From a virus (lineage: Duplodnaviria; Heunggongvirae; Uroviricota; Caudoviricetes), in IMG/VR virus record IMGVR_UViG_2724679238_000010: DNA of 4,510 nucleotides; one strand, written 5' to 3'. The stretch's first letter is position 1. Each line of letters opens with the position of its first letter. A program made the position numbers and the translations under genes. Under the pieces are notes generated by a model, which made no database searches, was not told the origin of the DNA, and worked only from the letters and a program-made list of their open reading frames with translations. This document shows positions 372 through 4,236 of this stretch, in pieces.

Positions 372-1349
372 TTACCCCCTGAACCCCGGAGGAATTTCGG
401 TGTCCGGTTCAGAAATATGATTCACACAACGCTGTACAGGTGAACGCCCCAGGCGGATGACCAGTTCGTCCCATTTTTCGCGGAGCTTTGACGGGCTCAT
501 GATGTTTTTTACCCAGAATGGATCCCGCTGTACCCGCCCAAACATTTCGCAAATTTGTCTGTGAGTTCTGCCATCCAGCATCCGCATTGTGCGCACGTCA
601 TTGGCCCACGCGGTCCAGTTTGGTTCTTTCGGTCGCGTGATCTCGCCATCATCGCTGGCCGCCTGCTCGTAAAGACTCACGATTCGTCCCCAGATCCACT
701 GTGCGCACGCCAAATCTTCCTGACTTCCCCACTGGCGTTTTTTCGCACTGAACACAACCGCATCAGGGTGTCGGGTTAAAAAATCCTGTTCAGCCGTCTG
801 CGGGTCCGGTTGCGAAGCGTCCGGACAAGAAGATCTTTTATCTGATGGATCAGATTTTAATACTGACGGATCGGGGTCAATCATCGCCCCCCTAACCGAC
901 CGTTTTTTATCAACGGTTGATCCATCAAAATTTGACGGGTCAACCGTTGAGGGGGCAATATTTGACGGGTCAACCGTTGAGGGGTCAATATTTGACGGGT
1001 CATTTTTGGCCGGGCTAATTTTTCTTTTCGGTTTATATGCCTCTCGCGCCGCCGCTGCTGCAGCTTCGAGTTTTTCCACATTAAGCCGGTAGATATTGCT
1101 TACGTTACGTCCGCCAACCTTACGCTCTTCCTTTGTCAGCCAGCCGCTCTTTTCCAGTTCCGCTATCGCCGCTTTAACCGTTGATTCACTCTTTGCCCCA
1201 ATCTGACGACGAATGGTCTCTACTGCAGGCCATGACACACCTTCATCATTGCTGTAGTCTGCAAGACGAGCCATCACTGCCACCCTGGATAAGATCATGC
1301 CGGTGAAGGCACACCCTTCCCAGACAAGACCATGAAGCTTGCTGCTCAT
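372..1349 (-). CDS. phage replication initiation protein, lambda O-like (N-terminal winged-HTH domain, repeat-encoded linker, C-terminal domain)
   Basis: 325-aa ORF with ATG at 1347..1349 and a GGGG SD-like run 6 nt upstream. The N-terminal segment (GMILSRVAVMARLADYSNDEGVSWPAVETIRRQIGAKSESTVKAAIAELEKSGWLTKEE) looks like the winged-HTH of phage replication initiators. The middle is a 10-aa peptide repeat (DPSNIDPSTV / DPSNIAPSTV / DPSNFDGSTV) encoded by 30-bp DNA iterons. It lies immediately upstream of the DnaC-like loader gene. Family assignment is from recalled features, not a search. Confidence 0.85.
   Translation of the reverse strand: MSSKLHGLVWEGCAFTGMILSRVAVMARLADYSNDEGVSWPAVETIRRQIGAKSESTVKAAIAELEKSGWLTKEERKVGGRNVSNIYRLNVEKLEAAAAAAREAYKPKRKISPAKNDPSNIDPSTVDPSNIAPSTVDPSNFDGSTVDKKRSVRGAMIDPDPSVLKSDPSDKRSSCPDASQPDPQTAEQDFLTRHPDAVVFSAKKRQWGSQEDLACAQWIWGRIVSLYEQAASDDGEITRPKEPNWTAWANDVRTMRMLDGRTHRQICEMFGRVQRDPFWVKNIMSPSKLREKWDELVIRLGRSPVQRCVNHISEPDTEIPPGFRG
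909..1003. repeat. putative replication origin iterons inside the initiator gene: 30-bp tandem direct repeats with internal dyads
   Basis: Seen directly: 927..956 aaaatttgacgggtcaaccgttgagggggc; 957..986 aatatttgacgggtcaaccgttgaggggtc (28/30 identical); 987..1002 aatatttgacgggtca (truncated third copy). Each unit holds overlapping palindromes TTGAC-GG-GTCAA and TCAAC-C-GTTGA. An inverted relative, TCAACGGTTGA, sits at 910..920. A more AT-rich stretch follows at 1003..1040. The layout resembles lambda ori inside gene O. Confidence 0.6.
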
Positions 1350-1372: not shown

Positions 1373-1798
1373 TTAGTGCATCACCACGGCATTTCCTGCC
1401 GGGCCACCGCGATTAATCTGGTTGAAACCAGCAATTGCCACCGCAATAAAATCATCTGCATCCCTCACCAGCCGCTCCCGCGTCTCCAGCAGCTCCCGAA
1501 AATAGGCTGAACTGTGACTGCGCATTCGGGCCACCAGCAGAGGCGGCATTGCCTTTTCGATCGCTGGTAACAACGCCTGAATTTTTTTAACCGCATCAGG
1601 GGTGTCTTTCTCCACCCAGCGGAAAATTTTCTGAGTATTGCGAGCCAGGGCTTCAGGATGGCTGTCGTCATATAATTCCGGGAACGTCATACCCAGCTCA
1701 AAATAAGCCCGGGTTATTTCAGCCGCCGGAACTTTTTCACCGTCCGGATGCGCCCAGGCATTCATCACCATGCGGATGTGCTCATGCTTGATTATCAT
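1373..1798 (-). CDS. ydaT: YdaT-like protein (CII-like regulator, toxic on overexpression in Rac-type prophages)
   Basis: 141-aa ORF, ATG at 1796..1798, with AGGAG SD (rc of 1807..1811) 8 nt upstream. The protein (MIIKHEHIRMVMNAWAHPDGEKVPAAEITRAYFELGMTFPELYDDSHPEALARNTQKIF...) matches my recollection of the E. coli YdaT family. It sits directly downstream of the cro-like gene. Symbol is from recalled similarity plus synteny. Confidence 0.8.
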   Translation of the reverse strand: MIIKHEHIRMVMNAWAHPDGEKVPAAEITRAYFELGMTFPELYDDSHPEALARNTQKIFRWVEKDTPDAVKKIQALLPAIEKAMPPLLVARMRSHSSAYFRELLETRERLVRDADDFIAVAIAGFNQINRGGPAGNAVVMH

Positions 1799-2063
1799 GA
1801 ATCAAGCTCCTGGAAAGTGGTTGTGTTAACGTTTTGGTATCTTCCAGCTCGGGCCAAATATTCATCCAATCAAAAGGCCTTAGTTGCTGACGTGTAACTT
1901 CACCATTACTGGCTCGCTCAATAAGGACACATAACGATGCCCCTAACACTTGACCTTTACTCAATGCCTTTCTTAGATAACCGATGCTAGTACCACACTC
2001 ACATGCAAACATACGCTGTTCATCTGACGAAAGAGAATTGAGAAATATTCTTAATTCTTCCAT
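1782..2063 (-). CDS. ydaS: YdaS-like Cro-type HTH transcriptional regulator
   Basis: 93-aa ORF, ATG at 2061..2063, with AAGGAG SD (rc of 2069..2074) 5 nt upstream. The segment GTSIGYLRKALSKGQVLGASLCVLIERASNGEVTRQQLRPFDW fits the YdaS/Cro-like family pattern (ERA..GEV...LRP.DW). It is the first gene of the operon divergent from the repressor and overlaps ydaT by 17 nt. Confidence 0.8.
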   Translation of the reverse strand: MEELRIFLNSLSSDEQRMFACECGTSIGYLRKALSKGQVLGASLCVLIERASNGEVTRQQLRPFDWMNIWPELEDTKTLTQPLSRSLIHDNQA

Positions 2064-2081
2064 GGCTACTCCTTAGTAAAC

Positions 2082-2172
2082 TACGGTCAAGAATACCCAC
2101 AGGTAAACAAAAGTCAATACCTATGGGTTGTTTACCTTGCGGTAATCGCATCTATTATTTACCTATGGACAA
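2082..2172. promoter_or_regulatory. divergent promoter/operator region between the cro-like gene and the repressor gene
   Basis: Three copies of a dyad motif: O1 2093..2106 ATACCCACAGGTAA; O2 2117..2130 ATACCTATGGGTTG; O3 2159..2172 TTACCTATGGACAA. O1 and O2 are 24 bp centre to centre. Leftward promoter candidate: -35 TTGACT (rc of 2112..2117), 16-bp spacer, -10 TATTCT (rc of 2090..2095). Rightward promoter candidate: -35 TTTACC 2131..2136, 16-bp spacer, -10 TATTAT 2153..2158, ending 6 nt before ATG 2165. Confidence 0.5.
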
Positions 2173-2584
2173 ATATGAATTTAGACGACAGCAACTCATC
2201 AAAATTCGTGATGAGAAATGCGATGGTAAAGCGGTTAACGTGGCCAGAAAGATCGGTCGCGAGCCTTCTTATGTATCAAGAATGTTGTACCCAGAGGGGA
2301 AAAAAGGAAAAAAACGGATCGCTGATGATATGGTGGAGATTATCGAAGAGTCCTTTGGGTTACCCCGGGGATGGATGGATGGTATCGTTTCATCATCAAC
2401 GAACACAGCCTCCAATTATGAAACAAGGGTTCTAACGCCACGACAACGTATTTTTTTAGATCTCTTAGACGAACTGCCAGAAAGTGAAACGGATAACTTA
2501 TTAAAAACTCTTGAAGAGAAAAAACAGTATTACAATATGATCTACGAAGAAATCCGTAAAAAGAAAGCACAAAACGCGTCATAA
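2165..2584 (+). CDS. racR: prophage repressor, RacR-like (possibly a leaderless transcript); alternative start at 2123
   Basis: 139 aa from ATG 2165 (MDKYEFRRQQLIKIRDEKCDGKAVNVARKIGREPSYVSRMLYPEGKKGKKRIADDMVEIIEESFGLPRGWMD...). A helix-turn-helix-like segment sits near the N-terminus. The gene is divergent from the ydaS-ydaT pair, which is the position of racR in Rac. No SD precedes either candidate ATG, and the predicted -10 lies immediately upstream of 2165. Symbol rests on synteny plus a recalled, unverified resemblance. Confidence 0.65.
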   Translation: MDKYEFRRQQLIKIRDEKCDGKAVNVARKIGREPSYVSRMLYPEGKKGKKRIADDMVEIIEESFGLPRGWMDGIVSSSTNTASNYETRVLTPRQRIFLDLLDELPESETDNLLKTLEEKKQYYNMIYEEIRKKKAQNAS

Positions 2585-2999: not shown

Positions 3000-3376
3000 T
3001 GAGGCTGACGATGGAATTTAAAGATTTACCGTCTGATGTACAGAAAACAGCAGCTCATACATTGCATTCTGTGCTGCGAGAAATCGGGAAAGATATTGCA
3101 AGCGAGCCAGCAAAAGATCTGGCCCGGAAAATCAAGACCGCTTTCGTTGAGCTTTATAATGTTGGCACTGACTCTGAAACTGTCGAGACCAAGACCGTAA
3201 GTTCACCAATATTCTCACTTGAGCCAGGCGTATTATCAGGTGAAATATGCACCGAGATTTCCAGCGAACTGCTTCCGGTAATACGAGAAACAATTTGCCG
3301 TCGCGGTTTGGATGGAAGTTACGATCATGACGTCCTGCAAGTTCTCAGGACAATGGTGACTTCACTGGGGATTTGA
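2999..3376 (+). CDS. hypothetical prophage early protein (125 aa; alternative start 3011 gives 121 aa)
   Basis: ATG 2999 overlaps the TGA stop of the upstream gene by 1 nt (TGATG), suggesting translational coupling. ATG 3011 has its own GAGG SD (3001..3004) 6 nt upstream. No recognisable domain by eye. Confidence 0.55.
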   Translation: MRLTMEFKDLPSDVQKTAAHTLHSVLREIGKDIASEPAKDLARKIKTAFVELYNVGTDSETVETKTVSSPIFSLEPGVLSGEICTEISSELLPVIRETICRRGLDGSYDHDVLQVLRTMVTSLGI

Positions 3377-3545
3377 TCCCTGCGTCCTCTAACCTTTTGA
3401 TATAGCGGTCCTCCAAGAAGCGGTAAATTTTGTCGAAATCATCTTTCCCCTCTGATTTATTCAGAGGATTACAGGACCCGTAAGTAGCGGCATACATTTC
3501 AACCGTTTTATCAAAAATATAAGAGACAAATTCTTCTTTAGTCAT
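3345..3545 (-). CDS. hypothetical small protein, 66 aa, charged and soluble-looking
   Basis: ATG at 3543..3545 (rc) with AAGAAGGA SD (rc of 3553..3560) 7 nt upstream. Protein MTKEEFVSYIFDKTVEMYAATYGSCNPLNKSEGKDDFDKIYRFLEDRYIKRLEDAGIKSPVKSPLS. The track ORF extends to a GTG at 3630..3632, but that start lacks an SD. The 3' end overlaps the convergent gene 2999..3376 by 32 bp. Confidence 0.45.
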   Translation of the reverse strand: MTKEEFVSYIFDKTVEMYAATYGSCNPLNKSEGKDDFDKIYRFLEDRYIKRLEDAGIKSPVKSPLS

Positions 3546-3882
3546 ATAGATTTCCTTCTTGGTTATTCGGGATAAGAAGGATACCACCTCGCCTGACGTG
3601 GTTAAAAGCAGGCACACAACACGAAAGCGCACGGCGAAGTTCGTCTCACTGTACGGTGTCGTTAAATTTAATTCGACCGTGCGCTTCCGGTTGTGGCAAC
3701 CCGCGAAATGGCGCGGCGGTAAGTATGGCGGGGTTATTCCTTCCCCGTTGAGGACACCGGGTTGTCAGGTTGACCATACGCTTAAGTGACAACCCCGCTG
3801 CAACGCCCTATGTTATCAATTTTCTGGTGACGTTTGGCGGTATCAGTTTTACTCCGTGACTGCTCTGCCGCCCTTTTTAAAG

Positions 3883-4030
3883 TGAATTTTGTGATGCGGT
3901 GAATGCGGCTAAGCGCACGCGGAACAGTTAAAACCAAAAACAGTGTTATGGGTGGATTCTCTGTATCCGGCGTTAATTGTTAACTGGTTAACGTCACCTG
4001 GAGGCACCAGGCACCGCATCACAAAATTCA
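3883..4030. repeat. perfect 19-bp inverted repeat pair enclosing 110 bp with GTTAAC dyads
   Basis: 3883..3901 tgaattttgtgatgcggtg is the exact reverse complement of 4012..4030 caccgcatcacaaaattca. The enclosed region holds GTTAAC-TG-GTTAAC (3979..3992) within cgttaa...ttaacg (3971..3993). The right arm ends 5 nt before the SD of the 4048 gene. Confidence 0.7.
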
Positions 4031-4047
4031 TTGTTGAGGACGCGATA

Positions 4048-4236
4048 ATGGAAACGTTATTACCAAACGTTAATACGTCTGAAGGTTGTTTTGAAATTGG
4101 TGTCAGAATCAGTAACTCTGCATTTACTGAAGATGCCATTAACAAGAGAAAACACGAACGGGAGTTATTAAATAAAATATGCATTCTTTCAATGCTGGCA
4201 CGTTTACGCCCGATGCAAAAAGGATGCTGGCAATGA
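4048..4236 (+). CDS. hypothetical small protein, 62 aa
   Basis: ATG 4048 with GAGGA SD (4036..4040) 7 nt upstream. Protein METLLPNVNTSEGCFEIGVRISNSAFTEDAINKRKHERELLNKICILSMLARLRPMQKGCWQ. Its stop TGA (4234..4236) overlaps an in-frame ATG (4233..4235) of the next ORF. The track ORF starts at a GTG (3943) lying inside the inverted-repeat region, which I consider non-coding. Confidence 0.4.
   Translation: METLLPNVNTSEGCFEIGVRISNSAFTEDAINKRKHERELLNKICILSMLARLRPMQKGCWQ

Follow-up and report, generated by a model that had tools for sequence, protein, structure and literature searches.

Here we describe the immunity region of a viral DNA segment of 4,510 nt (IMG/VR record IMGVR_UViG_2724679238_000010, Caudoviricetes), which we call the window. 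These 4.5 kb come from a lambda-like (Qin/Rac-type) prophage, of which they form the immunity and early region. At its core lies an immunity repressor gene on the plus strand (coding sequence 2165..2584; 139 amino acids (aa) plus stop), defined by its open reading frame (ORF), a match to PHROG 5736 and an AlphaFold2 (AF2) model. Back to back with it, on the minus strand, lies a YdaS/cro-like gene (1782..2063, ATG at 2063..2061). The 101 bp between the two genes carry divergent promoters, one on each strand. Our subject is the start of the repressor gene. A sequence-only reading of the same DNA had described it as lacking a Shine-Dalgarno (SD) sequence and as possibly translated from a leaderless mRNA.

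A promoter scan finds a PRM-type promoter directly in front of the repressor gene. Its -35 hexamer TTTACC (2131..2136, plus strand) doubles as the left half of an operator, O3. After a 16-bp spacer follows the -10 hexamer TATTAT (2153..2158, plus strand). These are the hexamers, the positions and the spacer that the sequence-only reading had proposed. Six nucleotides, TTACCT (2159..2164), separate the -10 from the ATG at 2165..2167; they contain no SD, and the transcript would have no room for one. Transcription usually starts 7 nt past the last -10 base, hence at A2165, with the pyrimidine T2164 before it. A2165 is thus the predicted +1 of the maintenance transcript, which would begin with a 5'-terminal AUG. 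The 6-nt gap, together with a 6-7-nt spacing that is conserved among relatives (see below), supports the earlier proposal that transcription begins at or next to the A of ATG 2165. In the minimum free energy fold of the predicted mRNA, the first 26 nt are unpaired.

The earlier reading had considered two start codons, ATG 2123 and ATG 2165, and had found an SD sequence at neither. Our calculations agree. Over positions -20..-4 relative to the start codon, the free energy (dG) of the anti-SD duplex is +1.9 kcal/mol at 2165 and -0.4 at 2123, compared to -5.4 to -8.6 for the other tested gene starts in the window. The strongest value belongs to the cro-like gene, whose SD (AAGGAG, 2074..2069, minus strand) lies 5 nt upstream of its ATG.

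How often would a promoter fall onto an ATG in this way? When the 101-nt intergenic region is shuffled, 0.54% of the shuffles have a match of equal quality that places the start on the ATG. Among the 150 ATG triplets of the window, one has such a promoter placement, and it is ATG 2165 itself.

The arrangement recurs across a family of repressors. A degenerate-pattern scan of one genome per species yielded 41 loci from Enterobacterales, Aeromonas, Neisseria, Burkholderiales, Nitrosomonadales and Xanthomonadales. A set of 44 non-redundant loci (de-replicated at 90% identity) covers gamma- and beta-proteobacteria, and an alignment of the 80 nt upstream of the ATG took in 29 genera. In this alignment the elements follow each other in a fixed order: TTTACC-N4-GGTAA (O1), about 8 nt that include TCAA, TACC-N4-GGTT (O2), TTTACC-N4-GGTAA (O3), about 9 variable nt, TAnAAT, 6-7 variable nt and finally the ATG.

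We called a hexamer -10-like if it has an A at position 2, a T at position 6 and at least four of six matches. Such a hexamer lies at exactly 6 nt (16 loci) or 7 nt (14 loci) from the ATG in 30 of the 44 loci, against a background of 1.6% per position elsewhere in the upstream 56 nt. The bases on either side of the -10 show no conservation in the family, and this includes the gap up to the ATG. With loci aligned on the -35, the -10 columns form the sole information peak between O3 and the ATG. The TTTACC -35 is nearly invariant, and in 24 of 28 non-redundant loci it stands 34 or 35 nt from the ATG.

SD sequences are scarce at these starts as well. The median anti-SD dG over the 44 loci is -1.7; three loci reach -6 or below and 41 are weaker. 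At two of the three strong loci (both Edwardsiella) the responsible GGAG sits within the promoter spacer, at least 12 nt from the ATG. For a first set of 42 loci, repressor and cro-like starts have median values of -2.45 and -3.85 (Mann-Whitney p = 3e-5), a noisy comparison since the automated choice of cro starts often took spurious ATGs within operators. Because these picks are crude, we used gene starts within the window as the SD control.

A natural leadered variant occurs in Orbus sasakiae (locus L033, 1480-1503), where an SD, AAGGGGGG, stands 5 nt before the ATG and no -10 is found at the usual position.

Which of the two ATGs starts the repressor? They share one frame and are 42 nt apart. 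Sequence comparisons indicate that the start is almost certainly ATG 2165. The Prokaryotic Genome Annotation Pipeline (PGAP) places the same start in E. coli EFF60. All database homologues align from Met-Asp-Lys-Tyr-Glu (MDKYE), and this Met is an invariant column. Matches found by tblastn begin at query residue 1 in all 41 genome loci, and all 44 non-redundant loci use ATG as start codon.

Translation from ATG 2123 (2123..2125, plus strand) would instead give a 153-aa protein, longer at its N-terminus by 14 residues (MGCLPCGNRIYYLP). The reading frame is indeed open from 2123, and the program-made ORF list starts there. In the alignment of database homologues, however, no protein shares the 14 residues; the upstream extensions that do occur vary in sequence and length. 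The anti-SD energy at this ATG is equally unhelpful to it, as given above. ATG 2123 falls within the variable 4-bp centre of operator O2, and the closest E. coli and Salmonella relatives read CACA (EFF60 and L050) or CATA (L048) at its position. An in-frame ATG at the equivalent position exists in just 4 of the 44 loci. In the family upstream alignment, the 42 nt between both ATGs are conserved operator and promoter DNA, without conserved coding sequence. Since ATG 2123 lies in a variable operator centre and is absent in relatives, we reject it and take 2165 as the start; the chance that 2123 is used after all is close to nil. ATG 2123 is an accident of the operator sequence. Thus, of the two candidates in the sequence-only reading, homologues and PGAP support ATG 2165, while ATG 2123 is not a real candidate.

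Gene callers have extended other members of the family in a similar manner. Ten homologues (P0010, P0014, P0027, P0034, P0040, P0057, P0065, P0075, P0087 and P0090) carry unrelated N-terminal extensions of 3-46 residues ahead of the invariant MDKYE, and these extensions read into operator and promoter DNA. They include MIVL, MLMS, MVNDVKIAS, MMSD, MSG, MFC and the 46 residues of P0014, and are mutually unrelated. Such systematic mis-annotation would be expected of leaderless genes that lack an SD.

The promoters are embedded in operators. Allowing at most one mismatch, the window contains six palindromes of the form TACC-N4-GGTA where 1.05 are expected; no shuffle out of 200 yields as many. 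Three of them lie at OR, two perfect ones at OL and one, probably by chance, at 4061. The window therefore has a lambda-type OR layout, in which at least three related, predicted palindromic operators lie over divergent promoters and are repeated at OL. O1 (TACCCACAGGTA, 2094..2105) is centred at -65.5 from A2165, overlaps the -10 and the spacer of PR and is conserved family-wide. O2 (TACCTATGGGTT, 2118..2129, centre -41.5) lies between both -35 hexamers, the position of lambda OR2, and shares a 13-nt identity with OL2. O3 (TACCTTGCGGTA, 2133..2144, centre -26.5) is also conserved family-wide. It covers the -35 and the spacer of PRM; hence it is likely an autorepression or Cro-type site.

The divergent PR-type promoter of the cro-like gene (2117..2090, minus strand) consists of the -35 TTGACT (2117..2112), a 16-bp spacer and the -10 TATTCT (2095..2090). 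Transcription from it is predicted to start near 2083, at a distance of about 82 bp from A2165. TCAA, the complement of TTGA in this -35, is conserved across the family.

A fourth, candidate operator, O4 (TACCTATGGACA, 2160..2171), overlaps both the +1 and the start codon of the repressor. It agrees with OL1 at 12 of 14 positions, and both mismatches fall in the Asp2 codon. L001, L048 and L050 retain its left half (TTTACC/TTTACT), more distant loci do not. Similarity to OL1 and conservation among close E. coli and Salmonella relatives thus point to a lineage-specific site, which we keep as a candidate only because it is not family-wide. Should O4 prove real, the repressor's binding site would coincide with the very DNA from which the 5'-terminal AUG and the first codons of its own mRNA are read. 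The coding of Asp2 and the strength of the operator would then put limits on each other.

OL1 (2627-2638) and OL2 (2652-2663) both match TACCN4GGTA perfectly; they follow the repressor stop and precede the ydfA/dicF/dicB operon. The two sites are mutually complementary (100%). In plus-strand RNA they would form a 16-bp hairpin, followed by TCCTTTATTT, 43 nt past the repressor stop. Given this terminator-like hairpin and T-run, the same DNA may serve as OL and also end the repressor transcript. For PL, TTTACT (2639-2644), a 17-bp spacer and TATCCT (2662-2667) make a plausible candidate, which is below the scan threshold.

The sequence-only reading had likened the repressor to lambda cI expressed from PRM, and the lambda reference record, from which we read the positions of the cI -10, the operators and the cro ATG, agrees in the spacing from -10 to ATG and in operator positions. 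Lambda reads TAGATT-TAACGT-ATG on the cI strand, the window TATTAT-TTACCT-ATG, so that the gap is 6 nt in both. Counted from the cI ATG, OR3, OR2 and OR1 have their centres at -19, -42 and -66, compared to -26.5, -41.5 and -65.5 for O3, O2 and O1. The cro ATG is at -101 in lambda, and that of the cro-like gene at -102 in the window. The distance between the two divergent start points is about the same in lambda as the roughly 82 bp in the window. In both systems the repressor has no SD, while the cro gene under the divergent PR has a strong one.

The two systems also differ. The third operator of lambda lies over the -10 and the spacer, whereas O3 lies over the -35, and the window possibly has a fourth site at the +1. 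Operators are 17-bp sites in lambda and 12-16-bp TACC-N4-GGTA sites in the window. The searches made detected no sequence similarity between the repressor proteins. Unlike the lambda protein, the window repressor has no S24 autocleavage domain, and the cII equivalent is a YdaT-type protein.

One piece of sequence is common to both: the cro leader shares CTCCTTAGTA. The leader of the cro-like gene (2064-2085; CTCCTTAGTAAAC on the plus strand) is nearly identical to the lambda (L047) cro leader (CTCCTTAGTACAT), while the cro proteins and operators differ. The shared leader may be a remnant of recombination at a module boundary.

Lambda is one of several phages and prophages with a leaderless repressor mRNA, and the design is therefore familiar. 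Leaderless transcripts are described for lambda cI (PMC10491246), for PY54 cI (PMC4488713) and, by differential RNA sequencing, for dicA, racR and ymfK (PMC4681348). The strongest racR promoter, PracR3, was identified as leaderless by primer extension and -10 mutagenesis (PMC9638921). For paaR2 of CP-933P the evidence comes from 5' RACE, N-terminal sequencing and mass spectrometry (PMC8630535). The signal by which leaderless mRNAs are recognised is described as the 5'-terminal AUG (Brock et al. 2008, cited in PMC8630535).

Some of these systems resemble the window closely. racR of K-12 reads GAATAT, 6 nt, ATG, with the same gap. PaaR2 of CP-933P (E. coli O157:H7) is, as in the window, a short non-S24 repressor encoded divergently from ydaS-ydaT, with an intergenic region of 97 bp compared to 101 bp. 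It belongs to a different family (starting MQKKE), and its operators are 18-bp repeats of the GTTTAGTAA type. PaaR2 heads a toxin-antitoxin operon, whereas the window repressor is monocistronic, with the OL operators and the dicB operon behind it. OR of phage mEp043 is identical in architecture: O1, TCAA, O2, O3/TTTACC, TAGAAT, 6 nt, ATG. Over the 3.2-kb immunity region the records of mEp043 'c-1' and of the wild type are identical, so the comparison does not link the clear-plaque mutation to the homologous cI.

An exact match to the YdaT box (TTGATTatcatgAATCAA, TTGATT-N6-AATCAA) is found at 1788..1805, at the ydaS/ydaT junction. YdaT is the cII equivalent, and we took the motif from PMC9986795. 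The box spans the start codon of the ydaT-like gene (1798..1796) and the end of the ydaS-like gene. In CP-933P, YdaT activates PRE (PMC8630535), and the window has its box at the same gene junction. By analogy, the box probably marks a PRE-type promoter directed toward the repressor, which would give a leadered mRNA, also without SD, from the same AUG. 'Leaderless' would then apply to the maintenance promoter only, a point that the sequence-only reading had not raised. Near the box, an extended -10-like sequence, TGgTATCTT, is found at 1835-1843.

Alternatively, leadered transcripts could be the main source of the repressor. They would come from PRE (near 1788-1850) or from minor intergenic promoters, TATTAT would contribute little, and ribosomes would start internally without an SD, aided by the A/U-rich 15 nt ahead of ATG 2165. 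The perfect YdaT box and the proven PRE of CP-933P fit this alternative, as does racR, where two of three promoters are leadered (PMC9638921). Yet in racR it is the leaderless promoter that is strongest and essential for promoter strength (PMC9638921). Within the intergenic region of the window, no other promoter upstream on the plus strand reaches the scan threshold. If TATTAT is not part of a promoter, it is also unexplained why a -10-like hexamer keeps its 6-7-nt spacing in 30 of 44 loci while its neighbours drift. We consider it unlikely that leadered transcripts replace the leaderless one. Most likely they occur in addition to it, during establishment.

Several observations nevertheless speak against a leaderless maintenance transcript or limit its reach. 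The promoter matches at 9 of 12 positions, and passing the scan threshold is by itself not significant (3 sites in 1.2 kb compared to 2.5 expected from shuffles). The conservation of the -35 is not independent promoter evidence because the -35 is half of operator O3. A perfect O3 on top of the -35 also raises the question of when PRM is active. In 14 of the 44 loci, mostly from beta-proteobacteria and Xanthomonadales, the -10 is weak or non-canonical (for example TTGAAT or TGCAAT, NNNAAT instead of TANNNT). The Orbus locus has a genuine, usable SD; hence the leaderless design is not universal. Additional leadered promoters, as in racR, and a YdaT-box PRE would mean that other repressor mRNAs may exist beside the leaderless species or at times exceed it. 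Finally, we found no transcript study of this locus or repressor family in the literature.

Taken to the extreme, the first of these points suggest that A/T-rich operator DNA has produced the promoter-like match by chance. There would be no dedicated leaderless transcript, and a probably cryptic prophage would express its repressor poorly or by read-through. Such a coincidence has to cope with the rarity of the placement at the ATG in shuffled DNA. Furthermore, the conserved position of the -10 extends to mEp043, a viable temperate phage, and of 5,426 complete E. coli genomes, about 822 contain 80% or more of the 1.1-kb immunity region, with identities of about 96-97%. A chance match is therefore very improbable. 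We conclude that the repressor gene most likely has a leaderless PRM-type maintenance transcript, as predicted from the promoter, the spacing and their conservation.

The leaderless model would work as follows. In a lysogen, a weak sigma-70 PRM-type promoter would transcribe the repressor gene from A2165. Since the +1 is the A of the ATG, the mRNA would have neither 5' leader nor SD, and ribosomes would start at the 5'-terminal AUG, as they do on lambda cI mRNA. Repressor at O1 and O2 would block PR. Bound to O2, at the class II position -41.5, it may also activate the weak PRM in the way lambda cI acts from OR2. At high repressor concentration, or through the Cro-like protein, O3 (and O4) would be filled and PRM switched off. 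During establishment, the YdaT-dependent PRE-type promoter would add a long leadered transcript that lacks an SD.

What kind of protein is made from this start? The repressor matches PHROG 5736 ('transcriptional regulator', E 1e-69) but has no Pfam match, and its N-terminal DNA-binding domain matches no Pfam helix-turn-helix (HTH) family. The AF2 model (predicted local distance difference test score 85) divides it into an HTH domain (about 1-75), a disordered linker (76-87) and a C-terminal helical hairpin (92-138). Of the four N-terminal helices, 23-30 and 34-40 are placed like a helix-turn-helix. Short-form database homologues are 50-98% identical. Longer homologues with an S24 peptidase domain (221-242 aa) are about 55-85% identical to the window repressor over their N-terminal 75-100 residues. 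These N-domain relatives carry PF00717, which is not found in the 139-aa window protein.

The C-terminal part has a different affinity. Residues 89-134 align with DicA 84-129 in BLASTP (33% identity, E 1e-7), and the N-terminal DNA-binding domains of the two proteins are unrelated in sequence, with no N-terminal similarity to DicA found by BLASTP. No similarity to RacR was found. Judged by its sequence, the repressor is a domain mosaic: an HTH domain that also occurs in S24-type cI proteins (mEp043) is joined to a DicA-like C-terminus, without an autocleavage domain. mEp043 cI and the S24 repressors of Enterobacterales (221-242 aa, C-terminal PF00717) are presumably RecA-inducible; the window protein has the helical hairpin instead. 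Over 75-86 N-terminal residues, identity between them and the window repressor is 65-85%.

A profile search of the PDB with the N-domain returned insignificant hits only (E 0.3 or worse). Foldseek matches the model best to Rep of Salmonella phage SPC32H (5d50, E 2e-3, probability 1.0) among PDB structures, and next to Xre/C-protein/CI-type HTH domains. Rep, known from the Rep-Ant complex, combines an HTH N-domain with a helical C-domain, as does the AF2 model. The match is weak (template modelling score 0.44-0.46, 17% identity) and serves as a lead only. The model's likeness to an antirepressor-controlled Rep hints at control through an antirepressor, so that induction may not proceed by RecA-mediated cleavage; the window yielded no antirepressor gene, though no search was aimed at one. 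Under the protein accession or mEp043, we found no functional study of this repressor family in the literature; a Neisseria paper with the word 'leaderless' deals with FnrS and has no bearing here.

With some speculation, the leaderless design could be an ancient, selected property of the module that combines the MDKYE HTH with TACC-N4-GGTA operators and not a quirk of lambda, with the start codon placed inside O4 in the E. coli/Salmonella lineage. We regard this as possible but rather doubtful. If it is so, the layout of -10, 6-7 nt and AUG may have survived swaps of the C-terminal domain (S24 peptidase or DicA-like hairpin) and the spread of the module among gamma- and beta-proteobacteria.

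More immediately, the analysis settles the start codon for an E. coli prophage repressor that is very common yet uncharacterised. Among Enterobacteria, where few genes are listed as probably leaderless, it adds a widespread repressor family of unrelated sequence, and it supports the idea of leaderless expression of the maintenance repressor as a general design feature of lambda-type switches. Gene callers treat such genes badly, and the pattern of -10, 6-7 nt and ATG could be used to correct annotations. We see the value of the analysis in correct annotation, in the breadth of conservation and in a possible operator over the start codon.

The gene layout of the window agrees with that of the Qin prophage of K-12, while the immunity module differs. 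The best identity among complete E. coli genomes is 92.7% across the whole window and 96.7% across the immunity region. PGAP labels the repressor gene in the E. coli genomes that carry the immunity region as 'hypothetical protein'.

On the minus strand lie an O-type replisome organiser with iterons (372..1349) and a YdaT/cII-like gene (1373..1798; PF06254, phrog_163 'CII-like activator'). The cro-like gene matches phrog_35 and, under the gathering cut-off, PF15943. Inside the O-like gene, iteron-like repeats with 15/30-bp periodicity (TTTGACGGGTCAACCGTTGAGGGG.CAATA) extend over 910-1023 and encode a repeated DPSN/DPSTV peptide. They are the probable replication origin of the prophage.

Downstream of the repressor, the plus strand carries a DUF1391/ydfA-like gene, an ORF of unassigned role, the DicF small RNA (3822-3873; Rfam RF00039, 76.7 bits, E 2.5e-16), dicB (4048-4236) and a ydfD-like gene. 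The window shares DUF1391/ydfA-like, DicF, dicB and ydfD with DicA/Qin, in addition to the likeness of the 46 C-terminal residues of the repressor. As in DicA/Qin, the repressor gene lies upstream of ydfA-dicF-dicB, with the OL operators in between. The position of these operators suggests that the repressor probably also controls the downstream DicF/DicB cell-division inhibitors. A Qin-type dicF/dicB cell-division-inhibitor operon is thus located behind a non-DicA immunity module.

Two minor features complete the region. A match to STnc100 at 3871-4080 (plus strand) stays below threshold (39.1 bits compared to a gathering score of 47) and reaches into the 5' end of dicB. Between the plus-strand early genes and DicF, a convergent minus-strand ORF extends over 3345-3632 (MTKEEFVSYIFDK...). 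Its probable start is ATG 3545, with an SD-like AAGGAA upstream, which gives a protein of about 66 aa.

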